Positions 13,527 through 45,433 of a stretch of 64,000 bases of DNA are shown one piece after another. The translations under genes were made by a program, and so were the position numbers. Source of the stretch: an uncultured Gammaproteobacteria bacterium (GTDB lineage Bacteria; Myxococcota_A; UBA796; JAJRTE01); NCBI GenBank assembly GCA_964418585.1, contig CAYQMG010000045.1, positions 721 to 64,720 on the forward strand, in the 5' to 3' direction. Under the pieces are notes generated by a model. The model was not told the DNA's origin and did no database searches. It was given only the letters and a program-made list of their open reading frames with translations. Within the stretch, counting starts at the first letter, position 1. Each line of letters starts with the position of its first letter.

Positions 13527-13634
13527 TTCCGGCTGTGTCGAGGTTCCTGGCCTACCCGGGAATCAGGGAGCGGGGGCGACGGGGGGTCGGAGCCGCATCC
13601 CCGCGCGACACCAGCGTGCGAGGAAGATTCCGCG

Positions 13635-21784: not shown

Positions 21785-22261
21785 TCAGCGGGCATACTCG
21801 GCGACCGCGTCACAGGCGTTGTCCGTGCCGCTCTTGAGGCGGAGGTTGGTGAGGATGACCTCGTCGGTCTGGAGCTTGCACTGCTCGTCCTGCTGCGAGG
21901 TGATGTCCTCGTAGGCGCGACGACACTGGACGAGTTCGTCGTCCGAGAACGGCACGCCGCAGGAATCGAACACGTCGGCCATGCGGTCACAAAGTTTCTG
22001 GCACTCGTTCTTGCAAGCAACGCTGAACAGGGCGCTAGCCGCCAGGAGCGCAAGGACCGCCGGAGACCGCCAACGCCTGGGTGCAGCCGTGCTGAAGTGC
22101 GTCGCACCAGGGAGCGTCTCCAGTTTCGGCGAGTTGCCGGAATTTTCTGCACAGGTCACGCCGTTGCTCGTAATCTCGCTCACGTGTGTCCACCACTGCG
22201 TCGAAATCCCTGAGAAGAGCTTCGAAGCAGGTTGCCTTGCAACAGGATCGTAGCTCGTCAC
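21785..22261 (-). CDS. Cys-rich lipoprotein, paralog 1 (start uncertain)
   Basis: Signal peptide RRWRSPAVLALLAASALFSVAC followed by a Cys-rich domain (C-x3-CQKLCD...). The signal-peptide codons overlap the 3' end of paralog 2 in another frame. No canonical start codon lies immediately before the signal peptide; the table ATG at 22261 gives a 64-aa N-terminal extension. Confidence 0.4.
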   Translation of the reverse strand: MTSYDPVARQPASKLFSGISTQWWTHVSEITSNGVTCAENSGNSPKLETLPGATHFSTAAPRRWRSPAVLALLAASALFSVACKNECQKLCDRMADVFDSCGVPFSDDELVQCRRAYEDITSQQDEQCKLQTDEVILTNLRLKSGTDNACDAVAEYAR

Positions 22262-22773: not shown

Positions 22774-23607
22774 ATGAGGGAACCCATTCACTGCGGCGTG
22801 TTGCAGATCGAACCGACCGACGTGTGCAACCTTCGGTGCCGGATGTGCGCCCCTCAGCTCGAGGCGTCGAGGACCGTGCACGGGTCGGTTCCCAAGGGGT
22901 ACATGTCCCTGTCCGTGCTGCGCCGGATTGTGGAGGGCATTGCACGCAGTCCCGTGCGGTTCGACCACCTGATCTTTCAGTGGCTGGGGGAACCGACCCT
23001 GCACCCGCGCCTGGTGGACATGGTGAGCCTGTGTCACGAGCGTATCCGGGACCGCTTCGACTACTTCCGGATCGACACGAACGGGGTGGCACTGACCCCC
23101 GAGAAGATAGACGGACTGGTGGAGATCTACGAGCGGGATCGCGGGTTTCCGCTGCTTATCGTCTTCTCTCTGGACGCGGTGACCGAGGCCACTTACCGAC
23201 GGGTGAAAGGAGCGCCTCGAGGTACCTTTTCACGGGTCCTGAAGCACATTGATCACCTGCTGGACCGGCGGGCGGCGTTGAAGGGGGAGCCGGTGAACCT
23301 GAACCTGGAGTTTCAGTTCGTGCTCCAGGGCGGGAATGCGCACGAGACGCGGGCGTTCCTGGAGTACTGGGACCAATACCTGGCCGAGGGGCGACGAGGG
23401 GTCGGGTACAACGAGGTGATGATCAAACGCCTCAGCGTGGCGGCAGGAGGGGAAGGGCAACGGCGGGCGGACGAACTTTACGACGAGACGATGCGGATTT
23501 TTGGGATCCGGCCGTTCGACAAGCCGCACATTCACCTGGCGACCTGGAAGGACAGGACATGGGAACGGGACGTCGCCCCTGCCCGGGGCTCTGGAAAACC
23601 CCTGTAA
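22774..23607 (+). CDS. Radical SAM protein (CxxxCxxC core), N-terminal and core part; apparently truncated by a frameshift
   Basis: Start at MREPIHCGV. Radical SAM cluster motif CNLRCRMC. The ORF ends at 23607 after ...TWKDRTWERDVAPARGSGKPL; the SPASM-like continuation is in another frame. Confidence 0.65.
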   Translation: MREPIHCGVLQIEPTDVCNLRCRMCAPQLEASRTVHGSVPKGYMSLSVLRRIVEGIARSPVRFDHLIFQWLGEPTLHPRLVDMVSLCHERIRDRFDYFRIDTNGVALTPEKIDGLVEIYERDRGFPLLIVFSLDAVTEATYRRVKGAPRGTFSRVLKHIDHLLDRRAALKGEPVNLNLEFQFVLQGGNAHETRAFLEYWDQYLAEGRRGVGYNEVMIKRLSVAAGGEGQRRADELYDETMRIFGIRPFDKPHIHLATWKDRTWERDVAPARGSGKPL

Positions 23608-23897
23608 TCCGATGGGATGGCCAGCTCACCGTATGCTGCGCGGATGTGCGGGGCCAGATCGAGGTCGGCAACGTGGCAGAGGCAGACTTTGACACACTCT
23701 GGAATGGACCGCGCATGACCCGGTACCGTATCTGGCACATTCTGGGCCAGTTTGACCGCATGCCTCTGTGCGCCGGTTGCGGTGGCATCAACTTCTATCG
23801 AATGACCGATGACGAAATTCGGGCCTATCTTGCCCGGATTGGTCGTCTGGACCTGTTTCCTCGCTATCTCGCCCGCATGAAGGAGGCGGGGGAATAG
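23559..23897 (+). CDS. SPASM/twitch-domain C-terminal fragment of the radical SAM protein (different frame)
   Basis: RPCPGLWKTPVIRWDGQLTVCCAD and PLCAGCGG are classic SPASM auxiliary-cluster motifs. It overlaps the upstream rSAM ORF by 49 nt in another frame, so this is either a frameshifted gene (pseudogene or sequencing error) or programmed frameshifting. Confidence 0.55.
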   Translation: MGTGRRPCPGLWKTPVIRWDGQLTVCCADVRGQIEVGNVAEADFDTLWNGPRMTRYRIWHILGQFDRMPLCAGCGGINFYRMTDDEIRAYLARIGRLDLFPRYLARMKEAGE

Positions 23898-24984: not shown

Positions 24985-27900
24985 TCAACCTCTTCGGAGA
25001 GAGACCAGCAACCGCACCTCGGGCCGGGAGTCGAACCGGGCGCACATGGCCGATGACATGTCCCTCCGGATTTCGTGGATGAGCTTGAATGCCTCGTCCA
25101 CGTGGCTCCGGACCCGGGACGGTTTGCGGTTCATGGAGGCCAGCCGGGCGCTGAGTGCGAGTGCACGAAGCAGGAGGAGGCGGAGCCCGACCGACTTGAG
25201 GCGCGGCCGGATGTCGGCGAGGACGCTCCATGCCTCGTCGCGTTCGCCACGGACCACCAGACCTTCTGCGAGGAACAGGTCGGCTTCCAACATGCCCGGC
25301 ACGTCCCCCAGTTTTTCCGCAGCGGCCACGCCCCGCCGGATGGTGAGGATACCGTTCCGAAGCGATCCTGCATGGATGAGCGCCGAGCCGGAGAATCGCT
25401 GGGCACGTGCCTGAAGCGCCCGGTAGTGGCCTGCGTCGGCCTGTTCCAACGCTTCTCCAAACGCGACGAGCGCCATCTTGGGCTTGCCTCGAGCCAGGGC
25501 CAACTGCCCCATGAGAAGTTGCCGCACACACCGCACATGCTGGTGGGGCCTGCGCTTGAGCAACTCTGCCACCTGGTCCAGCATCTTTTCCGCCCGGTCC
25601 AGGTCCCGCAGCTCGAGAGCCACGGCGGCGGTGGCGACGGCGGCGGCGGCCACATCGGGTTGGTGGCCGACCTGGCGCAAGGCGAGCACGGTATTGGAAG
25701 CCAGGGAGAGGGCCGAGACGAGGTCGCCGGTGGCGGCGTGCACCAGAGCCTCGTCTCCCTGGCAGACGAGGTGGAACGTGTCATGTCCCCAACTTCTCGA
25801 CAGGTTGGCCGCCTCGACGAAATGCCGAGCTGCCTGCCGAAGCCGGCCCTCGTGGAACGCGATCAGTCCCAGCCCGTGCACGGCGCGGCTCGAGAGGCCG
25901 GGGTCGTTGAGCTTGTTTGCTTCAGTGAGGGCGTCTGCAAAGAGCTTTCTGGCGGGTTCGCATTCCCCGAGGTAGCACATGCTGAGGGCCATGTCCGCGG
26001 TGGTCCGGACCAGGGCGTCGCGGGCGCCGCTTCGACGCTGGACCTTGGCAGCTTCCCCGTATTGAACGCTTGCTGTACGATAGTCTCCTCTCTGCGCCGC
26101 CAGTTCGGCCAGGGTGAACAGGGCCTCTCCTTGCACATCGAGTGCGCCCTGGTCCCCGGCTCGACTCGCCGCGGTCCGGAGATGGCTCGAGGCCTTTTCG
26201 CCTGCCCCCTGCTCTCGAAGGACCTGACCCAACCGAAGATGGGCGCGCGCGGCCACCTCGGGCTCCACCCCAGGTGCACGCCTGGCAGCTTCCAGGGCTT
26301 TCTCGAGCAGAGGGGCACAGGTGTCATGGAGGCCGAGACGCAGCCTGGCCTCGGCGGCCTTGAGGAGACGGGGGGCGGCGCGGTCCCATGCCCGTCCTTC
26401 GAACAGGTGGAGGGCGGTCATCTCGAGGCTGCCGTCTTCCTGGTCGCCATGCACGGTCATCCAGGCATCTGCGGCGGCGCGATGAAGCTGCTCTGCCTGG
26501 TCCCGCTCGAGCTGTCCGAGGAGGACGCGGGCCATCCAGGGGTGGTAGAAGGCGAACAGGCCGCGACGCTCGCCCGGGATTTCGACCAGGATTCGCCGGG
26601 CCATGACCCGGTCGAGTATGTCCAGGAGTTCGTCCTCGGCCACCGGCGTCACCACGCGCAGCCATGGATAGGGGCAGGGCCGCCCCAGTACGGCCATGTG
26701 GTCGAGCATGCGCCTGGTCGGCTCCGGCAGGAGTGCCACGCGCTCGAGGAATGCGTTGCGAAAGGCCGAGGCCATTTCTGCGACCGTGTCCGACTCGTCC
26801 GGGACGAGGAGGGTCCATCCGGAGACCTCGTCGCCGGCAACGGAATGGGGTGAGAGGTCGCCGCGATCCACCATCATGCGGATGGCCTCCACGACGTGAA
26901 GGGGGTTGCCTCGAGTTTCCTCGTGGAGCACGGTTCCGACCCGGCCGAGGTCGATGTGTCCCCCCAACATGGAGTCCACCAGGCGGTCCACCTCACTGCG
27001 GTCGAACGGCTGCACCTGGAGGCTTTCGATGAGGATAGGTCCCTCGAGCCCCCACCGTTGGAGCACGTGGTTTTTCTCGGAATCTTCGGAACTGACCGAA
27101 GCCACCACGAGGACGGGGGCATGATTCGGGTCGGGATGGCGCAACGCCACTGCCTCGAGCAAGTCGATGGTGGCCGGGTCGGCCCACTGGAGGTCGCGAA
27201 GGGCGAGCACGGTGGGGGAGGTGAGCACGGCGTCGAGGAAAGCCATCAGGGCGTCTCGAAGCCGCTCGCGTTCCACGTGAGGGGAAGCGTCGCGCACTTC
27301 CGGGAAGTGAGCGGGAAGCAGTCGAGCCACGGGAGGGAAGGCCCGGGCCAGGATGGGGAGGTGATTCCCCAGCTCCACCTGGACGAGGTTGACCTCGCGC
27401 CGGAGCAGGTGATTCACGATGGCCTCGAGCAACTCCACCATCCCGTGATACGGGCCTCCTCCGCCGGGATAGCAGCGACTGCTGAACACGACAAGACCTC
27501 GGGCCCGGGCGCCAGAGAGTGCGTCGTTGACCAACTGGCCCTTTCCGATGCCGGGTTCTCCAAGGACCACGTCGATTCCCCCCACCCCGGCCTGGAGCAA
27601 GGAGATGGAGCCGGCCAGTCGTTTCCGGGCGTACTCGCGCCCCACGAATGCAGGTTCGAACAGCCGGACGGTCCGGGGTGTCTCGGTGGGCACGACTCGA
27701 GGCGCGGCCAGTCCCTCCCGTCGCCACACTTCCTCGACGAACGCCTTGAGCACGCCCTCGACCTCGCGCCCGCTTTGGGGGCGTGCCATGGGGTCCTTGG
27801 CGAGAAGTTTCAACACGATGTCGCGGAGCGGGGCCGGCACGTCGGGATAGTAGGTCTCGAGGGGGACCGGGGGGTCGTTGACGTGTTTCAGGATGTAGGC

Positions 27901-28572
27901 GATGGCCTCCTCGGCGACGAACGGGAGTTCCCCGGTCAGAAGGAGGTAGAGCACGACTCCGAACGAATAGAGGTCGGAACGGTGGTCACACGGGGCTCCG
28001 GTGACCTGTTCAGGGGAACAGAAAGCGAACGTTCCCACCCCATCCGGTCCCTGGGCTGGACGGTCTGCGTCCAACTCACGGGCGATTCCGAAGTCGATGA
28101 GCTTGACCCGTTCGTCCGGTGTGACCAGGATGTTGGCCGGCTTGAGGTCCAGGTGGACGAGGTGACGACTGTGGATGTGGTCCAGGGCACTGGCGATCTG
28201 GATGCCGAGCAGGGCGGCCATCTTGTCCCGTTCCGGCCCCGGGTCCAGGTTCCGCTCCTCCAGAAAATCGGTCAAGGACACGCCGTCCACGAACTCCATC
28301 ACCAGGTAGGGACAGCCCTCGTGAACCCCGCTGTCATAGCTCCGAATCACGTTCGGATGGTCGCACCGGGACATCGCGCGGTGTTCCCTGCGGTAGTTCA
28401 ACTGGACCGCTTCCTTGTCGATGGGTGCGTAGTGGATTTTCAGCGCGAAGTAGCGGCCGGAGCGGGTGTCCTGCACCTTGAGGACCTGGCCCATACCTCC
28501 CACGCCGATGGTGGTGACCACGCGGTAAGGACCGATTCTGTCGTCGACTGCGCCGGGATGCTGGTTGCTCAC
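24985..28572 (-). CDS. Ser/Thr protein kinase fused to STAND (AAA/NB-ARC-like) ATPase and TPR repeats
   Basis: Hanks kinase motifs (GVGGMGQV, ALK, HLDLKPANIL, DFG, SPE). P-loop GEPGIGKGQL. A long C-terminal TPR/helical-repeat region. 1195 aa. Confidence 0.85.
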   Translation of the reverse strand: MSNQHPGAVDDRIGPYRVVTTIGVGGMGQVLKVQDTRSGRYFALKIHYAPIDKEAVQLNYRREHRAMSRCDHPNVIRSYDSGVHEGCPYLVMEFVDGVSLTDFLEERNLDPGPERDKMAALLGIQIASALDHIHSRHLVHLDLKPANILVTPDERVKLIDFGIARELDADRPAQGPDGVGTFAFCSPEQVTGAPCDHRSDLYSFGVVLYLLLTGELPFVAEEAIAYILKHVNDPPVPLETYYPDVPAPLRDIVLKLLAKDPMARPQSGREVEGVLKAFVEEVWRREGLAAPRVVPTETPRTVRLFEPAFVGREYARKRLAGSISLLQAGVGGIDVVLGEPGIGKGQLVNDALSGARARGLVVFSSRCYPGGGGPYHGMVELLEAIVNHLLRREVNLVQVELGNHLPILARAFPPVARLLPAHFPEVRDASPHVERERLRDALMAFLDAVLTSPTVLALRDLQWADPATIDLLEAVALRHPDPNHAPVLVVASVSSEDSEKNHVLQRWGLEGPILIESLQVQPFDRSEVDRLVDSMLGGHIDLGRVGTVLHEETRGNPLHVVEAIRMMVDRGDLSPHSVAGDEVSGWTLLVPDESDTVAEMASAFRNAFLERVALLPEPTRRMLDHMAVLGRPCPYPWLRVVTPVAEDELLDILDRVMARRILVEIPGERRGLFAFYHPWMARVLLGQLERDQAEQLHRAAADAWMTVHGDQEDGSLEMTALHLFEGRAWDRAAPRLLKAAEARLRLGLHDTCAPLLEKALEAARRAPGVEPEVAARAHLRLGQVLREQGAGEKASSHLRTAASRAGDQGALDVQGEALFTLAELAAQRGDYRTASVQYGEAAKVQRRSGARDALVRTTADMALSMCYLGECEPARKLFADALTEANKLNDPGLSSRAVHGLGLIAFHEGRLRQAARHFVEAANLSRSWGHDTFHLVCQGDEALVHAATGDLVSALSLASNTVLALRQVGHQPDVAAAAVATAAVALELRDLDRAEKMLDQVAELLKRRPHQHVRCVRQLLMGQLALARGKPKMALVAFGEALEQADAGHYRALQARAQRFSGSALIHAGSLRNGILTIRRGVAAAEKLGDVPGMLEADLFLAEGLVVRGERDEAWSVLADIRPRLKSVGLRLLLLRALALSARLASMNRKPSRVRSHVDEAFKLIHEIRRDMSSAMCARFDSRPEVRLLVSLRRG

Positions 28573-28777: not shown

Positions 28778-30739
28778 TCAGGATTCAGAGCCTGTTCGGC
28801 GGTTCAGGGCTTCCCGCACCACCGCGGCCAGGCGTCTCGAAAGACTCGCCTGCGTCAGTGTCTCGAGCCGGGCCTCGGCGGTCTGCAAGGCGTTCTCGAG
28901 CCGGCTGCACCTGGCTTCCCATGTGGCGCAGGCCTCCCGATGCGCGTTCAAGGCGGCCTCGAGCTGCTCCACCTGACGCCGTGCGCGTGTCTCTGCGCCG
29001 ACTCGAGCCGCGTCGGCGGCCTGGAGTCGGGCGGAGAGGTCGGCCAGGTCGTCGTTGAGTCGGTCGCGAGTCTCCCACAGAGCCTGGATCTCCTCCTGTT
29101 TCTTGCCCAGTTCACCGCGCAGGCGTGTGATCTCGGAACGGGCTGCAGCCAGTTGCTCTTCGGTGGATGCCTGACGGGCACGCCACGAAGCGGCCTCCTG
29201 CAATGCATCCTCGAGACGGTGCTGCGCCGCCTGACAGGCGGTCTCGAGCCTGGCGACTCCGGCCTCGAGGTCGTCACGCTGGGCGAGCGCCTTTTCCAGT
29301 TCCGCGGTCTTCTTGGCAACCTCCCGCCGGGCTGCGGCCAGGGCGCGATGGGCAGCGGCCAGGTCACCCCCGAGCGTTTCCTCCCGCTCCGCCGCCAGCA
29401 TGGCGGTACTCTCCTGCTGGTGGGTCGCGGCCTCGAGAGAGTTGCTCAACTTGCCGACCACGTCCATGAGCGTATGGACCTGATCCACCAGGGCGGCAAT
29501 CTCCTGGTCCTTTTTCTTGAGGTCGTCCTGGAGTGTTCTTGCGGTTCGACGGGTTTCGGCCAAGGCGGCTTCCAGGGTATCGGCTTCGCGACTTCTGCGA
29601 GAAAGGACCTCGGTCACAGTCTCCCGGCCTCGACGACGGGAAGGGGTGCGCACCAGTGCTGCGAACCGGGCCAGGGCCACCTCGGGATCGAGGCGTTCCG
29701 ATGCAAGACGCAAGGCATTCCGGCCTCGTTCCGAGACCTCTGGCTCATCTTCGAGTGCCTGGTCCAGCGCCGCGTTGAGGGCGGCCTCGTCACCGTGGGG
29801 CACGACCCATCCGGCGCGATACGCCTGGACCCAGGCGGCCAGGGGCTGGTGGTCGCCGATGAGCAGCGGCGTGCCGCAGGCGAGGGCGTCGACCTGCCGG
29901 AACGAGAGGGCCATTTCACGCTCCAGGTTTCGCGCGGTGAGGTCCACGACGCACCAGGCCGAGGTCAGCAAGGCACACATGTCCGGATGGTCGAGCAGGG
30001 AATGGCACACGACTCGAGGCCCGGGTGGCACGGGTGGGGGTGCGAGGTGGTGGTGCTCCGGGTCGAGAGGATAGGGGCCGCGCAAGAGGTGGAGCGTTCC
30101 CCGGCCCATCTGTTCGAGTCGGGCGGCGACGCAACCGAGGGCCCATGAGGAATCCTGCCACGGCCAGGCCACGCCCCCGGATACGAGGGTGGGTTCGGCG
30201 GTCCGTGCCGTTGCCCCGGGTCTGGCAACCGCGGCGATGGGCACCACGGCGATGCGCTCCTCGCGGCAATCCACCCCGGCGAGGGCGAGTGCGCCCACGT
30301 AGAAATACTTCTGCCTTTCCGACGTGACCAGGAAGTAGTCGGCCCGGGTCAGGGCGCCCATCAGGGAGAGCATTTCCCGGGATATGTCCGCGTCCTGCCA
30401 CTGCGCCTCGAGCACCCTTGGCGCGAACAGGTCCACGGCGATTGGGATGTCGAGGTCCTCGAGGAGTCCCACATCGTAAGTGCCTTCGACCAGGACGAGA
30501 TCCGGTGCCACGGCCCGGGCCAGGGCGAGGAGTTCCTGCTTGCCTTCGAACGGGTGCACGGGAGGCAACCCTGGCACGGGAGGACCCTCGAGGTCCCTGC
30601 GACGACTGGCATACACCACCTCGGCGCCATGGGCGGTCAACCCCAGACCGTTGCCGTAGGCCCGAACCGCCATCCCTGCCGCCGGATAGGGTCCGCCCGG
30701 AAGGCGCCCGTGAAACACGATCAGCACTCGCATGGTCAT
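28778..30739 (-). CDS. Glycosyltransferase family 1 (GT-B fold) fused to a long C-terminal coiled-coil domain
   Basis: N-terminal roughly 380 aa has the GT4/GT1 layout (MRVLIVFHG..., E-x7-E-like region ...GTPLLIGDHQPLAAWVQ...). The C-terminal roughly 270 aa is a heptad-rich, Ala/Glu/Arg/Leu-rich coiled coil (AALVDQVHTLMDVVGKLSNSLEAATHQQ...LENALQTAEARLETL). Confidence 0.7.
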   Translation of the reverse strand: MTMRVLIVFHGRLPGGPYPAAGMAVRAYGNGLGLTAHGAEVVYASRRRDLEGPPVPGLPPVHPFEGKQELLALARAVAPDLVLVEGTYDVGLLEDLDIPIAVDLFAPRVLEAQWQDADISREMLSLMGALTRADYFLVTSERQKYFYVGALALAGVDCREERIAVVPIAAVARPGATARTAEPTLVSGGVAWPWQDSSWALGCVAARLEQMGRGTLHLLRGPYPLDPEHHHLAPPPVPPGPRVVCHSLLDHPDMCALLTSAWCVVDLTARNLEREMALSFRQVDALACGTPLLIGDHQPLAAWVQAYRAGWVVPHGDEAALNAALDQALEDEPEVSERGRNALRLASERLDPEVALARFAALVRTPSRRRGRETVTEVLSRRSREADTLEAALAETRRTARTLQDDLKKKDQEIAALVDQVHTLMDVVGKLSNSLEAATHQQESTAMLAAEREETLGGDLAAAHRALAAARREVAKKTAELEKALAQRDDLEAGVARLETACQAAQHRLEDALQEAASWRARQASTEEQLAAARSEITRLRGELGKKQEEIQALWETRDRLNDDLADLSARLQAADAARVGAETRARRQVEQLEAALNAHREACATWEARCSRLENALQTAEARLETLTQASLSRRLAAVVREALNRRTGSES

Positions 30740-30773
30740 CCTCCCGGGGGTCGCGTCCCCCTTCCCTGCGGGT

Positions 30774-33110
30774 TCACCTCCGACGACCTCCCCGCCACCC
30801 GGACAGCTCCTCCACCGAAATCGTGGGGGCGTTGGGAGAGAACGGGTAACGGCAGTCTCGACAGGGCTCCATTGTGTGCAGACGCCCCTGAATCACCGCC
30901 CGCCGAAGTTCCTCCACGTGCGGCCCATCCCACCACAGGTGCACCAGGTCGTCCCGGGTGACCTCGCCCAGCCTCAGCTTCAGGAAACGGTCCTGGTCGC
31001 ACACGGTCACCTTGCCGTCCCAGGTGATGGTCGGCGTCTTGAACGGAGCGGCGCACCGCGGGACACGGCCTGTGTCCCGGTCCACCAGCACCTCTGTCAC
31101 CCCCAGCGCTTGCGCCGCACGACGCAGGCGCTCGTTGGCCTCATGCTGCGCCAGATAGGTGGCCTCGTCCTTGCGACGGAACAGAATGACATCCGGTACA
31201 GGTCCAGCCGGTTCTTCCCCGGCCCGCGCAATTCTCCCGGAGTGCCATGCAGGAACGCTCATGCCCTCACCCACCCGCACTCGAGGTGCCGGGAGCCCCT
31301 GTTCGGTGAGGCGGTGGGTCCAGACATCGCGGAACCGGACCACTTCATCGACGTTGTCCTCGAGGACCGTGAACACGAAAACCAGTCGAACATGGTCGGC
31401 TCTGACGGCAGCCTTGCGTGCAATCAGGTAGGCCAGGCGCTCCTCGACCACCGGGAGCAGGTCGGCGCCATTGACCTGGAGGTAGGTCTCCCGGGTGGCG
31501 GCGTCGAGCACGACGAACCACGTCTGGGGTAGATGTGCGGCCTCGAGGGTGAGGTCCGCATACTCGGTATTGAGCAACGTGGCGAAGGTGTCGATCCGGA
31601 TCGATCGGAACACCCCATGCGCCTGGGCGCGCGCCAGCAGGTACCGGTAGACCGGGACGAACTCGGGATGAAGCAGAGGGTCTCCGCGCAGGCCGAGACG
31701 CACCTCGTCGACCTGGACCCCGGCATCGGTCAATTCGGGCACGAACTTCCGGATCAGCTCGAATCCCATGAACCCGCGGTTGAAATTCAGGTAACCCCGG
31801 TTCCTCATCTCGTAGTACTCGAACGGGTCCTGATAGCAGCGTTCAAAAGGGACCGGGAGCCTGGAGATCAACTGTTCGAACCGGTCGCGAGACCGTGCGG
31901 GGTCGTGGGGCGGGTGAAGGTCCGAGACATCGGACAGCTCGAGGCACAGGGATGTGCCCTGGAGGGGTGTGGGCCGTTTCCGGTGTGCGGGGAATCGGCG
32001 CCGGACGACCTGGTGCAGGGTTCTTGCGAATTCGAAGGAAATGCGCATGAGCGAGTCCGATGATTCTCTCAGGTAGCAGTCCTGGATACACGGTGTGGTG
32101 CAGGCCTTCACCGCCTTTCGGCGCTCCCTGAGCAGGGGAGAATCCCACAGTTCCCGCAAGGTACGGCTCCGGACGTTGCCGAACGCGCCGGCAAGGAAGT
32201 CCAGGTGACCATCGCACATGATGGCCTGCCCGTCGGCGTTGATGTAGAGTTCCTTCCAGCCGGCGTAGCAAGGGGCCCGACGCGGAGGCAGGATTCCTCG
32301 CACGTACCGTTTCATGATTTCGAGTTCGTGCCGGGTGTTGACGACCGAGAAGCGGTTGGGGTCGTCGGTCTCCTTGCGGTGCAGCACCTGGTCGACCATG
32401 CGGTCGAGTTCATCCCAGCGTGATTCCGGGATCCAGAGGGCCTCGGCGGCAGGAGAAGCGAAGCCCCCGGGGGGCTTGAACAGGGTGAGGAGTTGGACCC
32501 CCTGGAACCCTTGCTGCTCGCACCAGTCGATGAACGAGGGGATGTGCTCGAGATCGAGTGCGTTGACCACACAGTTGACCACGATTTTCCTCGGCGGATT
32601 GCCCGCAGCCGTGTCGGCGGCCCGGATGGCGTGATATCCCTGGAGTGCCCGGTGGAACGAGCCCACCCCGCGCACCCGGTCATGCACCTCCCGGGGTCCG
32701 TCGAGGGACAGGTTGAAGTGAAGCCGGTCATAGGCAATGCGGGCGATACCTCGAGCCCGTTCAGGGGAGATGAGCGTCCCGTTCGTGGTCACGGTGATGT
32801 AGAAATCCTTCAAGCAGGCGTACTCGAGGATCTCCACGATGTCGTCCCGGATGAAGGGCTCGCCGCCGAGCGGGTTGAGGATTCGAACGCCCCACAGCGC
32901 GACCTGGTCGATGAGGTCCTTGATTTCCCGGGTCTCGAGTTCATCCTGGACAGGGTAGCAGGTGGTGCACATGGGGCAGGCAAGGTTGCACCGGAGGGTG
33001 AGGTTGATGGAGACCCAGTCGGGGCGAACCAGGGACCGCCTGGTCGCGCGCGACAGGTTGAACAGGAAGTCGGTCCTGAGTTCGTCCAGGGTCCGGGTCA
33101 TGATCCACAT
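30774..33110 (-). CDS. Tandem radical SAM/SPASM fusion protein (canonical rSAM-SPASM module + second, Cys-triad-less rSAM-like/SPASM module)
   Basis: Module 1: CNLACPMC plus SPASM (CYAGWKELYINADGQAIMCDG, ACTTPCIQDC). Module 2 lacks CxxxCxxC but keeps the TIM-barrel-like core and a SPASM-like end (CAAPFKTPTITWDGKVTVCDQD, PCRDC). It is recognisably homologous to the separate rSAM at 22774 (FRIDTNG vs IRIDTF; PVIRWDGQLTVC vs PTITWDGKVTVC). Confidence 0.75.
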   Translation of the reverse strand: MWIMTRTLDELRTDFLFNLSRATRRSLVRPDWVSINLTLRCNLACPMCTTCYPVQDELETREIKDLIDQVALWGVRILNPLGGEPFIRDDIVEILEYACLKDFYITVTTNGTLISPERARGIARIAYDRLHFNLSLDGPREVHDRVRGVGSFHRALQGYHAIRAADTAAGNPPRKIVVNCVVNALDLEHIPSFIDWCEQQGFQGVQLLTLFKPPGGFASPAAEALWIPESRWDELDRMVDQVLHRKETDDPNRFSVVNTRHELEIMKRYVRGILPPRRAPCYAGWKELYINADGQAIMCDGHLDFLAGAFGNVRSRTLRELWDSPLLRERRKAVKACTTPCIQDCYLRESSDSLMRISFEFARTLHQVVRRRFPAHRKRPTPLQGTSLCLELSDVSDLHPPHDPARSRDRFEQLISRLPVPFERCYQDPFEYYEMRNRGYLNFNRGFMGFELIRKFVPELTDAGVQVDEVRLGLRGDPLLHPEFVPVYRYLLARAQAHGVFRSIRIDTFATLLNTEYADLTLEAAHLPQTWFVVLDAATRETYLQVNGADLLPVVEERLAYLIARKAAVRADHVRLVFVFTVLEDNVDEVVRFRDVWTHRLTEQGLPAPRVRVGEGMSVPAWHSGRIARAGEEPAGPVPDVILFRRKDEATYLAQHEANERLRRAAQALGVTEVLVDRDTGRVPRCAAPFKTPTITWDGKVTVCDQDRFLKLRLGEVTRDDLVHLWWDGPHVEELRRAVIQGRLHTMEPCRDCRYPFSPNAPTISVEELSGWRGGRRR

Positions 33111-33229: not shown

Positions 33230-34321
33230 ATGAGAGAGAATCGGTTGCAATGGACCGTGGGCAGATGCTGGACGGCTCCGGCCGGGAAGGGTCCGGCGGA
33301 GAAGGCCGGAGACGCACGGGGTCTGCTCGTTGCGCTCCAGGCCCGGGTGTTCCCCGCACTGCTCCTGGCCGTGACGCTCGGGGCGCTCCAGGCCTGCGCG
33401 CACGAGGTCGGGCCCCGACACGGACTCTACATGAGCATGCGGTATACCTACTATGCCGCACTCCCTCGAGATGCCGGCGCACTCCGGGAGGAGGCCCACG
33501 AGATGGTGCTGCCCGAACTTGGAGTGTTCGACCCTCGAACCGTCACATTCACCGATTTCGCTGGAACCGTGCGCGTCCCGGTCGGCCCGAACGCACCTCG
33601 AGACGACCGGAAGCACGAGGCCCTGGCGGATCTGCCGAGGCGGTGCCGAACCGTGTTCGGTGAGCAGGTCCGGGTGCTCGCCTGGATCTTCCTCAGCCGA
33701 ACCGGCCCGGAACGCACGGGGTCGCCGAGGGCCGACACGGCAATACCGGTGTTCGACCCGGCCGACCCGCGGCATCGCGCCGCCCTGGTGACTGCGGTCC
33801 AGCACCTGCACGGACTCGGGTTCGACGGTGTTCAGCTCGATCTCGAGCCCTTCCCGGTGGCGGACGTGGCCCATGTGGTGGACCTGCTGGAGGAAATCCG
33901 GGAGGCGACGGGACCGGAGTTCGCCCGATCGGTGTTCTGCCCCAAGTATGTGCCGACCACAGACGCACGGCTCCATCCGGGCTTCACCTGGTCCTCTCCT
34001 CGAGCCTACCGGCGGCTGGCCCGCCATGGCGAGCAGGTGGTGATTCCCCTCTATGATTTCGGCGCCATCGCCGACACCGAGGAGGCATACCGCACCCTCG
34101 TGCTGGAGGCGGTCCGCGTGCTCCCTCATCGGATCCGTGCAGCACGCAAGTACTGGTTGGCCCTACCCACGTATCGACACACGGCGCAACACCCGCCGAC
34201 CGAGGAGGCTGCGACGGCCTTGGCTCTGATCGCCCACATGCGGCCTCGGCCCGGTGGTGTCCTGTTCTTCGTGCACACGGGCGAACCGCTCGACTACGTC
34301 CCAGGGGTACTCCCACGATGA
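33230..34321 (+). CDS. Hypothetical lipoprotein (possible TIM-barrel glycoside-hydrolase-like; DGVQLDLE motif)
   Basis: Signal peptide and lipobox (LLLAVTLGALQAC). Motif FDGVQLDLEP resembles the GH18-type DG-x-D-x-D-x-E catalytic motif (weak). Start uncertain (33131 or 33230). Confidence 0.4.
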   Translation: MRENRLQWTVGRCWTAPAGKGPAEKAGDARGLLVALQARVFPALLLAVTLGALQACAHEVGPRHGLYMSMRYTYYAALPRDAGALREEAHEMVLPELGVFDPRTVTFTDFAGTVRVPVGPNAPRDDRKHEALADLPRRCRTVFGEQVRVLAWIFLSRTGPERTGSPRADTAIPVFDPADPRHRAALVTAVQHLHGLGFDGVQLDLEPFPVADVAHVVDLLEEIREATGPEFARSVFCPKYVPTTDARLHPGFTWSSPRAYRRLARHGEQVVIPLYDFGAIADTEEAYRTLVLEAVRVLPHRIRAARKYWLALPTYRHTAQHPPTEEAATALALIAHMRPRPGGVLFFVHTGEPLDYVPGVLPR

Positions 34322-34515
34322 ACCACCCCGTTCCCTGCGGAATACCGCCGTGCTCCGGACGCGCACGTTCTGCCGAGGTCGAGCCGGCGAGGCCCTGGTT
34401 CCGGACTCAAGACGGCGTCCAGGACTGAACGGGCGGGCACCGGGATGTTACAATGGGTCGCAAGGCGCCACGCCACGGTGGCTCCGGGACAACCTGCACA
34501 GGGAGCACAACGATC

Positions 34516-37164
34516 ATGCAGCACCGGAAAGCGCACGAACCATCTTTTCTCGCCGCGGGAATCCTGCTCCTCCTCATGGCCGGCCCGCCTGGTTGCGGTC
34601 CCCAGGATGACGAGGGGTCCCCGACGCCCGGTACAGAAACCCCGGTGCCGGGTCCCACGTCCACTCCGGTCCCGGCCTCGACCACGCCGACGCCGACGGA
34701 ATCGCCGGACACCTACATGGGGTACGATTTTTCTGGAGTGGAGATTCACCCGGATCGATTCAGCCTGGTTGTGGACGGAGACATCCAATTCGGGGTTCCG
34801 GATCAGCCGTTCACCCTCACCGCGCGGGTAACCGGCGGAGTCCGGAAGGGTGACCTCTCATTTGCCTGGACCGTGTCTGCTCCGGAGGCAGCGACGTTGA
34901 GTGCGAGCGGAGCGGAAGCCGAGGTTCGGTTTTCCGAGCCCGGCGACTACCTGGTCCAGGTGGAAGCCACGGACGAGGATGGGGAGCAGACTCGAGCGGG
35001 TGCGTACATTCGAGTTTTCGAGCTGGACCCGGGAACGCCTTTCGCGGTGGGGGATCTGGACGGGGACGGAGCCGTCACGACTTCGGACGTGGAGCTTCTG
35101 GAATCCTACCTGTCGGGCAAGGAACCGTTCGACCGGGACGAAGCCCGGGAGGCGGACGTCGATCGGAACGGGGTGGTGGACGAGGTGGATGCCGTGTTGA
35201 TCCAGGAGGCGGTGGATGCGGGTGAGCGTGCGCCCACCCATCTTTCGAGCCTCACCGGCCATGCGGGGGCGCGGTTTCTGATGATCCATCCAGCACTTCT
35301 GCACCCGGACCGGGTGGCGTCGGTGAGCGTGACCACGGTTTCGGAAGGCACGTGGGATTCCGAGTGCCTGACCGGTCTGGAAGAGGAGCCCCGGGCCGAC
35401 CAGGTGCCGTTCGTACGCGGTGCGCCGGGCTACCTCACGTTCGCCCTCCCCATCCGTTTCGCATGCCTCACCTCGGCAGAGGAGGTGTCGGTGGAATTGA
35501 CGACCACGGACGGGGCCGAATCGGAGACGTTCACCGTTGGGACAGTGACGGTCAATCCGCTCGAGCCAGCCGGAGATCCGGCCGGGGACCTGGTGCTGGA
35601 GGCCATGGCCCGCATGCGGATGGCGATGGAAGAGGCCGCAGACACGCTCGAGACCTACGCTGACCTGGTGGGAGCCGGAGACGAGGAGCGGGCCGTACTG
35701 ATGGGGACCTGGGCAGCCGCGCTGGACATGCTCGCCGAGGCGCATGAGCAATTTCACGTGGCGTTCGAGGATCTGGACGAAGTTACCAGGGCGATGTTCG
35801 AGCAACTGGCTCGCTCCAGCGGTCTGGCCGATTCGGTGGCGTTGCTCCGGGAACGCACGGAGACACTGAAGGCGTACCAACGGATTCCGGCCATGACCCC
35901 GGACCAGGGGGAACTCATGGCTGACATCCTGTGCACTCTCCATGCGCTCGAGGACGTGAGTATCCAGGTGGCGAGTGTTTCGATGACCGTGGGGGACATC
36001 CTGGGAATCTACGAACACTTCCCCATCGGACGCCGTGAGGAGATTGGACCGATCCTGGAGTTCATCGCCAACATCACGGTCACGGTGCACGTGTCGATCG
36101 ACGTGGCCAAGTTGGTGGAGCAGTACCTGCCCAGCACCGGGGACGAGCTGACGGCCCAGGCGTCGCCCGATACCTTGTTTTTGGGAGATTCGACCGAACT
36201 GTCGGCATCCATCGACCTGGTGATGCCTCCGGGCCTGTGCGACGGGGGCGACCCTCCGACCATCGAGGTGCAACTCGGGGCGGTGGTCGAGTTCTACATG
36301 GATTCGCTCCCCGCGGACAACAACCAGGTTTTCCGGTTCGGGACCTACCTGGAGGAACATTTTGACGAAATCACAGCCCGGATCGAGGCGGTCATCCTGG
36401 ATCTGATTCCGGCGAGCCTGGAGGTCGAAGTGCCCATTGCCATGCTCACGGAGAAAATCTGCGACACGTTCCAGGATGAGACCCTCCCGCTCGACCCCTC
36501 GTTTCTCCAGGCGAGTTGCGGTGGTCTGGCCGACGACCACTGGACATGCGAGGAGGCGTGCCTGGGGCTGGTCACATTTTCGGGAAAACGAGAGGTTTGC
36601 GAGCAGGAACTGGATGCGGACGCCAAGGTGCAATGTGAAGATCCAGACGCCGGTCCTCCGAACCCGCCCCCGGTGGTCGCCGCTCCTCCGGCCGAGGGAC
36701 AGGAGAAGGCGTTGCCGCCCCCGGAATCGGGAGACTCCCCGCCCTATCGCGTGCACGCCTACTCCACGATCATGGACGAGCCTTCGGGGGCCGAGGCCTG
36801 TCCTGATGAGAGTTCGGAAGACTACTACCACATCGCCTGCGGTGGTGCAGGGGCCGGCTTCACCTTGTGGCTGGATTATGACATCCTCTCCGGCGATGGG
36901 CGCGTGGGCGCCATGTTCCTCGCGGCAACAGCCCTGGACCCGGACGCCGAACCGATCACGGCCTACTGGGAGTTCACGGGGATGGAAGACCCTTACACGG
37001 GCGAGGGCTGGGGTTCGGTCCCCCTTCCGCTCACCATCGCGGATGACGCACCCCCAGGCGAGTATCAACTGGACGTGGCGATCGCTCCGCCCGGCGAAAC
37101 CGACGTGTACGACCCGACGCAGGTCAGCAATTATGTAAGTTTCGACCTCGTCGTCGTCCCCTGA
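34516..37164 (+). CDS. Large acidic secreted lipoprotein with dockerin-type Ca-binding repeat
   Basis: Lipoprotein signal (LLLLMAGPPGC). Pro/Thr linker. Dockerin-like pair (GDLDGDGAVTTSDVELLESYL...ADVDRNGVVDEVDAVLIQEAV). The rest is acidic with no recognised catalytic motif. Confidence 0.6.
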   Translation: MQHRKAHEPSFLAAGILLLLMAGPPGCGPQDDEGSPTPGTETPVPGPTSTPVPASTTPTPTESPDTYMGYDFSGVEIHPDRFSLVVDGDIQFGVPDQPFTLTARVTGGVRKGDLSFAWTVSAPEAATLSASGAEAEVRFSEPGDYLVQVEATDEDGEQTRAGAYIRVFELDPGTPFAVGDLDGDGAVTTSDVELLESYLSGKEPFDRDEAREADVDRNGVVDEVDAVLIQEAVDAGERAPTHLSSLTGHAGARFLMIHPALLHPDRVASVSVTTVSEGTWDSECLTGLEEEPRADQVPFVRGAPGYLTFALPIRFACLTSAEEVSVELTTTDGAESETFTVGTVTVNPLEPAGDPAGDLVLEAMARMRMAMEEAADTLETYADLVGAGDEERAVLMGTWAAALDMLAEAHEQFHVAFEDLDEVTRAMFEQLARSSGLADSVALLRERTETLKAYQRIPAMTPDQGELMADILCTLHALEDVSIQVASVSMTVGDILGIYEHFPIGRREEIGPILEFIANITVTVHVSIDVAKLVEQYLPSTGDELTAQASPDTLFLGDSTELSASIDLVMPPGLCDGGDPPTIEVQLGAVVEFYMDSLPADNNQVFRFGTYLEEHFDEITARIEAVILDLIPASLEVEVPIAMLTEKICDTFQDETLPLDPSFLQASCGGLADDHWTCEEACLGLVTFSGKREVCEQELDADAKVQCEDPDAGPPNPPPVVAAPPAEGQEKALPPPESGDSPPYRVHAYSTIMDEPSGAEACPDESSEDYYHIACGGAGAGFTLWLDYDILSGDGRVGAMFLAATALDPDAEPITAYWEFTGMEDPYTGEGWGSVPLPLTIADDAPPGEYQLDVAIAPPGETDVYDPTQVSNYVSFDLVVVP

Positions 37165-37223: not shown

Positions 37224-38051
37224 TCAATGAGCCTGGGAGGCGTTTTTTTCACGATCCAGGGAGTCGGGCCCGTCATGGTCGGCCGGGGGTGGTCCTGGCG
37301 GGACCCCGGCAAAGGTGAGATGGTGATTGATCTTTCTCAGAAATCCCAGCAGGTTGCGCACCTCCTGCTCGTCCAGGGCCAACCGGCCCGCGATTCCCTG
37401 CACCAGAGCTCGAACCTGGGCCTGGTTGCGCGATTTCTGATACTCGACCCGCTGCGCCAACCGCATGACCTCGTCTACCAGCCGCCGCCGGACCGACCAG
37501 GGCGCCACCGTGCGCGGCTCTGAGCCGGTATCGGGATACTGGGCCAACATCAATTCATAGGAAACGATGAGCACTGCCTGAGCCAGATTCAGACTCTTCA
37601 GGCCCGCGGTGGGGATCTGAACCACCAACTCGCACAGACCCACCACCTCATTCGGCAGACCATAGTCCTCCCGGCCAAACAGGATCGCCACCCGACTTTC
37701 CACGGCTCGAGGCAACAGGTAAGGCCCCAGCTCCCGCGGTCCCACCACGGGCACCCGCCAGTGCCGCCTCCGGGCGGTCGTGCCCACGATGGTCCCCACA
37801 TCGGCGAGCGCGTCGTCCAGATGATCGAACACCTCCATCGTCTCGAGAAGGTCCCGGGCGCCTGCGGCCATCCACCGGGCCTTTTCCATGTCGCTGGAGG
37901 CCGGATCCACCACACGCAACCGACAAAGGCCCATGTTCTTCATCGCCCGGCAGGCCGACCCGATATTTCCAGGGTGCTGAGGTTGCACCAGGACCACCAC
38001 GATGTGATCCGGATCGAACGGAAGTGTGGTCTCTGTCAAAAGTCCCTCCAA
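37224..38051 (-). CDS. SpoU/TrmH-family RNA 2'-O-methyltransferase (TrmJ-like)
   Basis: SPOUT motifs (VVLVQPQHPGNIGSACRAMKNMG, AILFGREDYGLPNE, LNLAQAVLIVSYEL). It overlaps the upstream GCS2 gene by 16 nt. Confidence 0.8.
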   Translation of the reverse strand: MEGLLTETTLPFDPDHIVVVLVQPQHPGNIGSACRAMKNMGLCRLRVVDPASSDMEKARWMAAGARDLLETMEVFDHLDDALADVGTIVGTTARRRHWRVPVVGPRELGPYLLPRAVESRVAILFGREDYGLPNEVVGLCELVVQIPTAGLKSLNLAQAVLIVSYELMLAQYPDTGSEPRTVAPWSVRRRLVDEVMRLAQRVEYQKSRNQAQVRALVQGIAGRLALDEQEVRNLLGFLRKINHHLTFAGVPPGPPPADHDGPDSLDREKNASQAH

Positions 38052-39253
38052 ACCGGTCCGCCGTCCTTGAGGGGTTTTCGGAAACGAGTGATCCCCTCGT
38101 CCTCGTGGGAAGCGGCCTCGGTGGCCAAGGCTCGTTCCCCCGCACAGGACGACCGCAATTCCTGCTCGAGACTCATTACCACGGCCTCGAGTGAGTTGGT
38201 CTCACGAAAAACGCGCCGCTGTCGGTCCGCGCTGGAGCCTGTCTCGAGCATGCGCTCGATGGTCTTGAGATAGGGCCAGGAACCCAGAGCCTCGGACACG
38301 GGAGCCAGGGATTCGAGCATCTCTTCCAACACGGTACGGAAACGCTGCTGGCCTCCGGATTCGTCGGTCACCAGACGACAGTCCATGCCCCACCGCACGG
38401 CCCGCCACTTGTTCTCCTGCACAATCCAGTGCCTGGGCACGGGTTGCGGGACACCGCGTTCGTACAGGTCACCCAACCAGACGACCAGGGCCTGGGCAAA
38501 AGCGACCACGGCCAACAACTCGTCCAGGCGCGGCATGGCGTCACAGACCCGAAGCTCGAGGGTCCCGTACTGGGAATGCGGCCGAACATCTCCCCACAGT
38601 TCCTGAATCGACTCGATGGTCCCGATCTGCTGCAAGATTCGGATCATTCGCTGGAACTCGGTCCAGTTCCTCATCTGGTAGGGAACCCCCCCACCAGGCA
38701 AGGACTCGAACACCTTCGACCGCGCACTCACCAAGCCGGTATCCATTCCCTCCCAAAAAGGAGAGGAGGCAGACAGGGCAAGGAGCAACGGAATGTAGGC
38801 GGGAAACACGTTGAAAATGGACATCGCTTTCTCGGCCGTGTCCACCCCGATGTGGATATGCAACCCAAAAGTCAGCATGCGGCGTGCAGTCCACTGCGTG
38901 CGCTGAAGCTGCGTATGATACCGGGCATCCGGGGTCACTTCCTGGTCTGTCCAGTGCCCAAACGGATGCGTGCCCGCGGCGATCAAACGGTATCCCATCT
39001 CATCCGCAGCCCGTATGATGGACGACACCCGCTCCCGCAAATCGGCCTCGACCTCCCCCACCGTGCGGCAAACTCGAGTGTCCAGCTCCAGACAGCACTG
39101 GAGGAGTTCCTTCTTGACATGCGGGTCCTCCCGAAACCGATTCAACAGGGCCGGAGCACCGGAAGCCAGATCCAGGGTTTCCGGCTCCACTGTCTGAAGC
39201 TCGATCTCCACGCCAATCGTGGGCTCGGGAGAGCCCGGAAACGTGATCCCCAT
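38036..39253 (-). CDS. Carboxylate-amine ligase, GCS2 (YbdK) family, paralog A
   Basis: Start at MGITFPGS. Glutamate-cysteine ligase family 2 motifs (IGVEIELQTV, AAGTHPF, GLHIHIGV, SASSPFW, GTLELRVCD). Confidence 0.8.
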   Translation of the reverse strand: MGITFPGSPEPTIGVEIELQTVEPETLDLASGAPALLNRFREDPHVKKELLQCCLELDTRVCRTVGEVEADLRERVSSIIRAADEMGYRLIAAGTHPFGHWTDQEVTPDARYHTQLQRTQWTARRMLTFGLHIHIGVDTAEKAMSIFNVFPAYIPLLLALSASSPFWEGMDTGLVSARSKVFESLPGGGVPYQMRNWTEFQRMIRILQQIGTIESIQELWGDVRPHSQYGTLELRVCDAMPRLDELLAVVAFAQALVVWLGDLYERGVPQPVPRHWIVQENKWRAVRWGMDCRLVTDESGGQQRFRTVLEEMLESLAPVSEALGSWPYLKTIERMLETGSSADRQRRVFRETNSLEAVVMSLEQELRSSCAGERALATEAASHEDEGITRFRKPLKDGGPVWRDF

Positions 39254-39291
39254 ACGCACACCCCGCCGAGGGCACCATATCCACCATCTGG

Positions 39292-40410: not shown

Positions 40411-40605
40411 GGGGTACTCCCCGGTCCTCGTTGCCGACTCGACCCCTCCTGGGCGCCGGCGCGGGCCGACGTTGACCGGGTGATGGAACACCGGGGAGCC
40501 GAGAAGCCGCCGGTGGACGGGCTACGAGGCAGGTCATGGCGTTGCTCGAGACGGGTTGGGCGTGGTGTGGGTCCTCCGCACGACAGGCGGTTCGGATGAC
40601 TGCGC

Positions 40606-44555: not shown

Positions 44556-44597
44556 CCATCAGGGGCCTCGCGGACAGCCCCTGCCTTGCCGTCGGGG

Positions 44598-45426: not shown

Positions 45427-45433
45427 GACCACC

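Follow-up and report, generated by a model that had tools for sequence, protein, structure and literature searches.

A radical-SAM fusion protein and a coiled-coil glycosyltransferase form part of a conserved, unnamed gene set in uncultured Myxococcota-like bacteria

Introduction

A stretch of 64,000 nucleotides from an uncultured bacterium (positions 721 to 64,720 of contig CAYQMG010000045.1, assembly GCA_964418585.1; the whole stretch is called the window here) carries on its minus strand a gene that fuses two radical S-adenosylmethionine (radical-SAM) modules and, beside it, the gene for a glycosyltransferase (GT) with a long coiled-coil tail. Homologs of the two remain linked in relatives in which gene order and orientation have changed. 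We judge the chances to be about even that these genes belong to a cytoplasmic module of three enzymes, conserved but unnamed, of which the window holds one copy and whose target is bound to the envelope. The members would be a GT4-type head on a coiled-coil stalk with a basic tip; rSAM-A, the first half of the fusion protein; and rSAM-B, made up of the product of the gene at 22774 and a separate SPASM protein. In this clade, rSAM-B would have been duplicated and one copy fused to rSAM-A, the fused copy keeping its fold, a four-Cys auxiliary site, and a newly conserved loop. A sequence-only reading of the window had described the fusion and the GT but overlooked two conserved partners 7 to 11 kb away, the split rSAM-B and a small Cys-rich lipoprotein. 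The features on which the argument turns, with the evidence for each, are as follows (ORF, open reading frame; AF2, AlphaFold2; dN/dS, ratio of nonsynonymous to synonymous substitution rates; SD, Shine-Dalgarno).

30774..33101, minus strand: fusion gene, rSAM-A plus a degenerate copy of rSAM-B (ORF and translation, Pfam, AF2, homologs, public gene call)
31995..33101, minus strand: module 1, radical-SAM core plus SPASM-type domain (Pfam, Cys conservation, Foldseek, ortholog in locus L093)
30774..31955, minus strand: module 2, pseudo-radical-SAM domain with a SPASM/twitch-like end (Pfam, alignment with rSAM-B, dN/dS, loop states)
29645..30733, minus strand: GT4-type GT-B head, ~363 amino acids (aa) (PF00534, AF2, Foldseek, family columns)
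28778..29644, minus strand: coiled-coil tail, residues ~373 to 640, 270 residues (heptad score, AF2, family statistics)
22774..23607, plus strand: rSAM-B core, 277 aa, CNLRCRMC, active paralog of module 2 (Pfam, BLASTP, orthologs)
23559..23897, plus strand: separate SPASM ORF, 112 aa (Pfam SPASM E=1.6e-13, own SD-like sequence and ATG)
21785..22183, minus strand: small Cys-rich predicted lipoprotein (lipobox SVAC, then KNECQKLC...C...C...C...C; tblastn)

Results and Discussion

Conservation of the gene set

Relatives of the fusion protein were sought by scanning one genome per GTDB species. There were 344 matches, and the best 80, which were inspected for taxonomy, all come from metagenome-assembled genomes (MAGs) of uncultured Myxococcota or 'Deltaproteobacteria'. 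Many MAG labels among loci L007 to L041 ('uncultured Rickettsiales', 'uncultured Enterobacterales', 'Klebsiella pneumoniae', 'Cognaticolwellia') are implausible and are probably errors of bin taxonomy. The nearest public relative of the window is a deep-sea Myxococcota MAG (loci L001 and L005) with ~70% protein identity and the same gene order; the window GT protein itself is recorded in a public metagenome assembly (P0271, locus L087).

Synteny was counted over 81 nonredundant fusion loci, of which 28 are well flanked (at least 8 kb on both sides), using public gene calls and targeted tblastn. Greedy longest-ORF calling was dropped, since it chose antisense ORFs on GC-rich loci; the GC content of the window is ~65%. 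A GT homolog with 29 to 44% identity is present at 55 of the 81 loci and at 24 of the 28 well-flanked ones. Its position varies. It lies immediately upstream of the fusion gene, divergent and less than 300 nt away, at 36 loci; further upstream and divergent at 16; and upstream but co-directional at 2. A single locus, L005, has it downstream and co-directional, which is also the layout of the window. Thus, the operon layout in the sequence-only reading holds for the window, where the two genes are co-directional, but is peculiar to this lineage, as 36 relatives have an adjacent, divergent GT gene. The proposed functional link between the two genes is strengthened, because the pair is conserved through these rearrangements, and it persists in lineages in which GT identity is only 36 to 41%.

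The distant members of the set are instructive. At L093, an operon encodes a 677-aa GT with coiled coil (GT-CC), then a 374-aa stand-alone rSAM-A (45% identical to module 1 over 376 residues, without module 2), and then a 359-aa rSAM-B (47% identical to the 22774 core and 60% to the SPASM ORF, with CNLRCVMC). Given this unfused GT-CC/rSAM-A/rSAM-B operon, the window fusion can be read as rSAM-A plus a degenerate copy of rSAM-B. The GT-CC of L090 has 1819 aa (39% identity in the head); near it are genes for a fusion protein of 756 aa, for a split rSAM-B, and for two small lipoproteins rich in Cys. At L091, a 680-aa GT-CC is divergent from a 306-aa twitch-type radical-SAM protein with a Cys-rich end, and a GT2 gene is also present. 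The simplest history suggested by these arrangements would begin with an ancestral trio, in which rSAM-B was duplicated, one copy was fused to rSAM-A, and the SAM cluster of the fused copy was then lost stepwise.

One might instead suppose that these genes have no joint function and were simply inherited together, or that they are an anti-phage defense island with a viperin-like radical-SAM protein and a kinase. The carriers are all related uncultured lineages, and PADLOC returned pVip (54.9 bits) and kinase matches. The pVip match covers the generic core only, however, and coiled-coil hits to JetC and LmuB are compositional; the flanks are housekeeping genes (RuvABC, DapAB, YebC, HSP70). The association also survives changes of order, orientation, and fusion state, together with the GT divergence noted above, and we therefore regard both versions as extremely improbable. 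We found no curated family, defense model, or literature describing this gene set. A sterol or lipid pathway, suggested by 3-beta-HSD and P450 genes at L003, was set aside when no other annotated locus had a like context.

The fusion protein

The fusion ORF of about 780 aa is real and on the minus strand, as the sequence-only reading described it, with a refined start: the likely ATG is at 33101 (775 aa), in agreement with the public call, and an alternative ATG is at 33110 (778 aa). There are 285 homologs, the top 120 being mostly full length and 40 to 72% identical. The AF2 model, built on a 114-sequence alignment, has a mean confidence (pLDDT) of 92.5 and a predicted TM-score (pTM) of 0.83, with strand/helix alternation in the cores of both halves. 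The nearest solved folds in Foldseek are anSME, SkfB, SuiB, CteB, BlsE, and PqqE (E ~1e-12, 16 to 20% identity), and the sugar-modifying radical-SAM enzymes DesII and BlsE also rank high. No NCBIfam equivalog comes near its cutoff for the radical-SAM proteins (AhbC, 101 versus 650 bits; MftC, 95 versus 265; spiro-SPASM, 66 versus 250; NirJ, AhbD, and StsB are likewise below). The GT ORF lies 35 to 41 nt downstream on the same strand, and the terminator scan found no terminator-like site between the two genes.

Module 1 is predicted to have a catalytically competent radical-SAM core. PF04055 matches residues 35 to 165 (E=6e-22, 79 bits versus a cutoff of 29.5), and the cluster site C41/C45/C48 (CNLACPMC), the only CX3CX2C in the fusion protein, is accompanied by a GGEP motif. 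Residue, Cys, and loop counts for the fusion family refer to an alignment of 114 members, numbered from the ATG at 33110. In it, C48, C51, C281, C299, C337, C341, and C345 are invariant, and 111 members have C41 and C45, the other three having gaps. The SPASM family (PF13186) matches at residues 281 to 345, with a whole-protein score of 70.8 bits, above the cutoff. A canonical SPASM domain has a seven-Cys motif, CX9-15GX4C...CX2CX5CX3C...C, and two auxiliary clusters. Here, the pattern is CX12GX4C and then CX3CX3C, with five invariant Cys in addition to C51, and the canonical motif is not matched. The first module had been called canonical with a full SPASM domain; the CNLACPMC site and the SPASM match agree with this, but the SPASM domain has five Cys, not seven. 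The Cys counts of this end and that of module 2 would fit one auxiliary twitch-like cluster each. Each of the three units with a radical-SAM fold, rSAM-B included, carries auxiliary Cys sites, and module 1 and rSAM-B have one live radical-SAM site each.

Module 2 was proposed to be a second radical-SAM-like module without the Cys triad but with a SPASM-like end, and this description is borne out. When the C-terminal half was scanned alone, a second SPASM match emerged (E=1.7e-8, 35 bits versus a cutoff of 21.5), with a faint match to PF04055 (E=0.22); AF2 gives it a radical-SAM fold, with a core of six alternating strands and helices at a pLDDT above 90. After the beta-1 strand, LCLELSD, the place of CX3CX2C is taken by VSDLHPPHD and a conserved insert of ~25 residues. 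RGDPLLHPE is kept, and the C-terminal end has four Cys, C686, C704, C750, and C753, each found in 112 or 113 of the 114 members. Module 2 aligns end to end, at 27 to 33% identity, both with the 22774 protein joined to the SPASM ORF and with the single-ORF orthologs of L085 and L086; BLASTP of module 2 with the ORF at 22540 gives E=1e-13. Paralogy to the gene at 22774 is thus well founded. LCLELSD corresponds to LQIEPTD and RGDPLLHPE to LGEPTLHP, the C...TPxIxWDG...C...C..C ends match, and VSDLHPPHD stands where the paralogs have CNLRCRMC.

Although module 2 lacks the SAM cluster site, it appears far from free to drift. R436, F443, G446, G476, and H481 are invariant, and R410, P419, R445, and F447 nearly so; all but G476 and H481 of these fall in or around the replaced loop and insert. 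The dN/dS of module 2 is 0.179 and that of module 1 is 0.176 in the comparison of the window with L005, for which dS is ~1.0 to 1.3 in these two modules and 1.0 to 1.5 over all parts, near saturation, so that these and the other dN/dS values are approximate. The equal values argue that the dead module is maintained by selection and is not decaying. In the columns corresponding to window residues 386 to 412, the family shows a graded series of loop states. The loop has no Cys in 71 of the 114 members, one Cys in 10, two in 1, CxCx4C in 30, and the canonical CX3CX2C in 2 (P0011 and P0018); relatives with variant loops include P0060 and P0065 to P0072. The Cys-free state of the window is thus one end of this series, and the spread, with 2 canonical loops, 30 of the CxCx4C type, and 81 with one Cys or none, fits descent from an active enzyme.

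rSAM-B and the small lipoprotein

The gene at 22774, described as a stand-alone radical-SAM gene, does encode a radical-SAM protein, but there are really two ORFs, core and SPASM, which overlap by 49 nt in different frames. The sequence AAGGACAGGAC stands just before the internal ATG (junction at 23520-23640). The relative at L005, which is 72% identical, has essentially the same junction (~19520-19640); at L090 (15464-16791) the split is different, giving 295 and 146 aa, and at L085, L086, and L093 there is a single ORF (359 to 386 aa). The pattern suggests that the split is fixed and translationally coupled, and is not a sequencing error. Orthologs with ~50% identity, including the SPASM part, lie within 10 kb of the fusion gene at 20 loci.

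In this clade, the small Cys-rich lipoprotein gene is a constant neighbor of rSAM-B. By tblastn, homologs stand beside rSAM-B at the loci of 17 distinct relatives, always divergent from it. The family members have ~100 to 130 aa and a lipobox Cys followed by xNxCQxLC...EC...C...C...WxC (for example, L085 5209-5505, L086 6698-7015, and two tandem copies at L090 16891-17569), and in Pfam they match only DUF2845, weakly (E=0.007). In ~20 relatives, a kinase of the PEGA type is also beside rSAM-B, with a transmembrane segment and PEGA repeats (L085 3213-5189, L086 4422-6461) and an adjoining 429-aa PEGA protein; at L085, 20 nt separate the end of the lipoprotein gene from the kinase gene.

The lipoprotein is a possible substrate or partner of the enzymes, and the most concrete candidate substrate, but it could simply be a disulfide-rich protein of the envelope. 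One can envision a pathway of protein or peptide maturation, in which rSAM-B and the fusion protein modify the lipoprotein precursor before Sec export, in the manner of anSME and sulfatases, and the GT then glycosylates it. The place of the gene beside rSAM-B in the window, at L090, and in the 17 relatives, with a conserved Cys pattern, fits this proposal, as does the fact that the best structural matches, anSME, SkfB, SuiB, CteB, and PqqE, modify proteins or peptides. Several observations speak the other way. Pfam and NCBIfam found no RRE or PqqD-like recognition domain in any component, the six Cys that follow the lipobox could pair in three ordinary disulfides, and the versions of the module at L093 and L091 lack the lipoprotein. 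Where the gene lies 20 nt upstream of that for the PEGA kinase, it may belong with the kinase, and the sugar-modifying BlsE and DesII also rank high structurally. On balance, we consider maturation of the lipoprotein unlikely.

The glycosyltransferase head

The GT gene (28778-30733, minus strand) probably starts at 30733, giving 651 aa, with the SD sequence GGGAGG 6 nt upstream; homologs begin with MRVLIVFHG, and the public call agrees (the longest ORF extends to 30739). The identification as a GT-B glycosyltransferase is upheld by the predicted structure. AF2 gives the head a GT-B fold with a pLDDT of ~90, and Foldseek places it among retaining GT4 enzymes, MshA and sucrose-phosphate synthase first (E ~1e-15), BshA, WaaG, and PglA next (~1e-12), and then PimA. 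At the sequence level the match is slight: PF00534 scores 28.7 bits versus a cutoff of 26.4, over residues 283 to 342 only, and the invariant NxERE...R...G.P block does not map cleanly onto EX7E. PF13692 and PF13524 match weakly, and no PDB chain matches the GT sequence at E<0.1. The family has motifs of its own, DLFAPRxLE, GGVxWPWQD, NxERExAxSFR, and AGW.

An exhaustive HMMER scan with the head found 680 representatives at E<=0.001 and 123 at <=1e-30. An apparent rarity of the head, with 1 homolog in a word-index search and 23 with a profile, was a sensitivity artifact, according to tblastn on fetched loci and the exhaustive scan. The approximate dN/dS is 0.17 for the head and 0.31 for the tail, which is thus faster evolving and still constrained.

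The coiled-coil tail and what it may measure

The ~270-aa coiled-coil tail lies in one ORF with the GT head, as proposed. Of the three outcomes that the sequence-only reading had named as refuting it (no alignment of module 2 to radical-SAM folds, a separate gene for the tail, and no conservation of the pair), none was observed. In the AF2 model, the tail consists of two long helices, 373 to 449 and 461 to 649. A crude heptad score flags 93% of it, compared with 43% on average and at most 80% in 200 shuffled versions. It is rich in A, R, L, and E, with one Pro, and contains three [LV]xKKxxE[LI] motifs spaced 67 and 70 residues apart; it closes in a basic amphipathic tip, SLSRRLAAVVREALNRR. No transmembrane segments are predicted in the GT or radical-SAM proteins of the module.

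Such a tail had been called unusual, but within its own family it is the norm. The tail reaches 100 aa or more in 98 of 135 representatives, 250 or more in 64, and 600 or more in 20; lengths range from 75 to more than 1,380 residues, and the longest protein has 1819 aa. Every complete GT adjacent to a fusion gene has a tail, of 75 to 862 aa, and a truncated one has at least 1,280 aa. The L085 ortholog aligns with the window GT over its full length; this alignment and the family statistics led us to reject an earlier view of the tail as lineage specific, obtained when tblastn was run with SEG filtering. Fifteen representatives share the 67-residue interval between the first and second KK motifs. 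Of 137 family proteins, 84 carry a net charge of at least +3 on their final 30 residues, compared with a median of -0.6 per 30 residues in the preceding body; the median maximal hydrophobic moment of the tips is 0.41 (RRGLFRR and SKRRFL are examples of tips next to fusion genes).

Two observations on individual members may be added. The giants, P0138 (L090 10001-15460), P0136, P0141, P0145, and P0148, have 1,400 to 1,819 aa and many degenerate repeats with D[LV]xKKxxE[LA]; if extended, their tails would measure roughly 150 to 200 nm. The closest ortholog of the window GT (L005 12370-14328; L001 12370-12726 plus 12730-14325) is interrupted by one in-frame TAA, at the position of an Arg codon in the window (DVS*EML versus ISREML). 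It is otherwise intact and under purifying selection, and the TAA stems either from a nonsense mutation that arose recently or from an error in the assembly.

The sequence-only reading suggested a ruler or scaffold. As a ruler, the GT-CC would terminate or polymerize a glycan in a pathway dependent on an ABC transporter, the coiled coil setting the chain length and the radical-SAM enzymes modifying the glycan. The architecture has a good precedent in WbdD and WbbB, with an N-terminal head, a coiled coil, and an amphipathic basic tip (PMC11231755). Distant, short-tailed members of the GT family do occur in ordinary glycan clusters, at L088 with Wzm, Wzt with Wzt_C, GT2, GT4, and a methyltransferase, and at L092 as three tandem paralogs; one protein, P0140, contains a methyltransferase and a GT4 domain in addition to this GT and a coiled coil. 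The context of glycan export is absent here, however. No Wzm or Wzt homolog was found in the window (Pfam on ORFs; tblastn with the L088 Wzm and Wzt) or at other fetched loci except L088. The only additional GT found at the fusion-bearing loci is one weak GT2 hit (L022), and no genes for sugar-nucleotide biosynthesis are nearby. Stalks of up to ~1,380 residues (~200 nm extended) also go far beyond known rulers. A chain-length ruler seems to us distinctly unlikely.

The tail could alternatively form filaments or a polar scaffold, like a cytoskeletal element, that localizes the GT head and the radical-SAM proteins. A more than tenfold variation in tail length beside the same fusion gene (75 to at least 1,280 aa) would be compatible with this idea, as would weak similarity to SMC, tropomyosin, and intermediate filaments (the tail itself matches SMC, tropomyosin, and CCDC39 weakly) and the KK repeat of ~68 to 70 residues. 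This similarity is compositional, all scores being below cutoffs, and the internal repeat, although in register at the KK motifs, is not significant in a BLAST self-comparison. Self-assembly finds no support in our analysis, and we think a cytoskeleton-like role very unlikely.

A working model

We return to the three-enzyme cytoplasmic module. Its proteins have no transmembrane segments; taken with the lipoprotein close by and with the envelope kinases, this suggests that the target of the module is destined for the cell envelope. The presence in the fusion protein of a paralog of the other partner hints at physical interaction, and rSAM-A and rSAM-B probably act as a complex, in which the dead module would provide a scaffold or dock the substrate. 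The radical chemistry would be carried out on a substrate that the GT head glycosylates afterwards or beforehand, and the sugar, drawn from the common nucleotide-sugar pool, would be added by the GT to that same substrate. The stalk and its basic tip would tether the head, fixing how far it lies from the inner membrane or from a partner.

A more specific version, which we offer tentatively and would put well below an even chance, is that the trio makes a new radical-modified glycoconjugate of the Myxococcota cell envelope, possibly the small lipoprotein in modified and glycosylated form. The two radical-SAM proteins would be an obligate pair, one of them a repeatedly fused pseudo-enzyme, and stalk length, having evolved from ~10 to ~200 nm, would set the place of the chemistry or its distance from the membrane.

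Several points weigh against the three-enzyme module. rSAM-B lies within 10 kb of the fusion gene in only 15 of the 28 well-flanked loci. Shared ancestry, and not function, may explain some of the synteny, as the relatives are all MAGs of related lineages. The Pfam match of the GT is marginal, and the dN/dS values suffer from near saturation. Complex formation is suggested by the logic of fusion and synteny, and the charge and hydrophobic moment of the tip are what point to putative membrane binding.

Neighboring genes

Three further genes lie between or next to the parts of the module.

24985..28572, minus strand: Ser/Thr kinase with AAA_16 and TPR, 1195 aa (Pfam), between the module halves, membership uncertain
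33230-34321, plus strand: GH18-like predicted lipoprotein, FDGVQLDLE (DxxQxDxE, not DxxDxDxE)
34453-37164, plus strand: PKD and dockerin type I protein, 903 aa, no counterpart in syntenic L001/L005

The kinase differs in architecture from the PEGA-type kinases beside rSAM-B in relatives. The GH18-motif and dockerin lipoproteins had been suggested as partners of the fusion and the GT, and this suggestion is not sustained. PF00704 matches the GH18-like protein below threshold (E=0.024, 14.8 bits versus 29.6), and its homolog occurs only in the closest relative (L001/L005, 57% identity). No homolog of the dockerin protein was found at any fetched locus; the SpoU methylase gene is nearer the module in L001/L005 than in the window, and the dockerin gene is probably an insertion in the window lineage.

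Beyond these genes, 38000-45600 is syntenic with L001 1-7000 (DUF711, HSP70, two GCS2 glutamate-cysteine-ligase-like genes, and the SpoU methylase), so that the module sits among genes of the housekeeping type. A scan for sigma-54 promoters gave 23 matches versus 24 expected, the sigma-70 and terminator scans were at background, and Rfam returned nothing in 18-38 kb.

Comparison with known systems

All components can be assigned to known superfamilies; what appears to be undescribed is the conserved trio, the series leading to a fused pseudo-enzyme, and the very long GT stalks. With 344 matching GTDB species genomes, the gene set is conserved in hundreds of uncultured Myxococcota-like species and has no name. 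None of the carriers among the relatives seen is cultured, which limits the finding.

Module 1 resembles the SPASM/twitch enzymes (anSME, SkfB, SuiB, CteB, and PqqE; BlsE and DesII) in its CX3CX2C and GGE motifs, partial TIM barrel, and Cys-rich auxiliary domain. It differs from them in identity (13 to 20%), in having five SPASM Cys instead of seven, in having no RRE, and in being fused to a dead paralog.

Module 2 is closest in kind to the pseudo-SAM/SPASM (TIGR04347) and spiro-SPASM (TIGR04321) proteins, whose roles we take from their family names; like them, it has a radical-SAM fold without the SAM cluster and a SPASM-type end. TIGR04321 matches module 2 (residues 469 to 576) and rSAM-B with 66 and 51 bits versus 250, whereas TIGR04347 matches module 1 only, with 83 versus 525. 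Unlike in those families, the dead domain here is fused to a live radical-SAM domain, and an active paralog is kept nearby. FbiC (CofG-CofH) offers another parallel, with two radical-SAM-fold modules in one chain that are separate genes elsewhere, as they are at L093 here. Both modules of FbiC are catalytic; the second module of our fusion is without a cluster in most lineages. What the present family adds is a natural series from radical-SAM enzyme to pseudo-enzyme, running from separate active genes through a fused active copy and a CxCx4C variant to a Cys-free, constrained domain.

The GT head is like MshA, BshA, sucrose-phosphate synthase, WaaG, PglA, and PimA in its GT-B fold, with target-normalized TM-scores of 0.65 to 0.72. 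It is unlike the solved GT4 enzymes in sequence (10 to 18% identity), in having its own motifs (DLFAPRxLE and GGVxWPWQD), and in its coiled-coil tail.

For the tail, the relevant systems are WbdD, WbbB, and the Klebsiella pneumoniae proteins ORF7-O4 and ORF6-O7, in which a head is followed by an extended coiled coil of variable length and a C-terminal amphipathic, membrane-proximal region (PMC11231755). The GT-CC shares this layout of head, coiled coil, and amphipathic tip with rulers of the WbdD/WbbB type. It departs from them in its head, which is a GT-B of the GT4 type and not a kinase/methyltransferase, GT99, or GT137; in its radical-SAM partners; and in having no Wzm/Wzt genes and almost no other GT gene near the members linked to radical-SAM genes. 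The present GT4 family extends the design of an enzyme on a coiled-coil stalk, known from O-antigen length control, to radical-SAM partners and to stalks as much as ten times longer.

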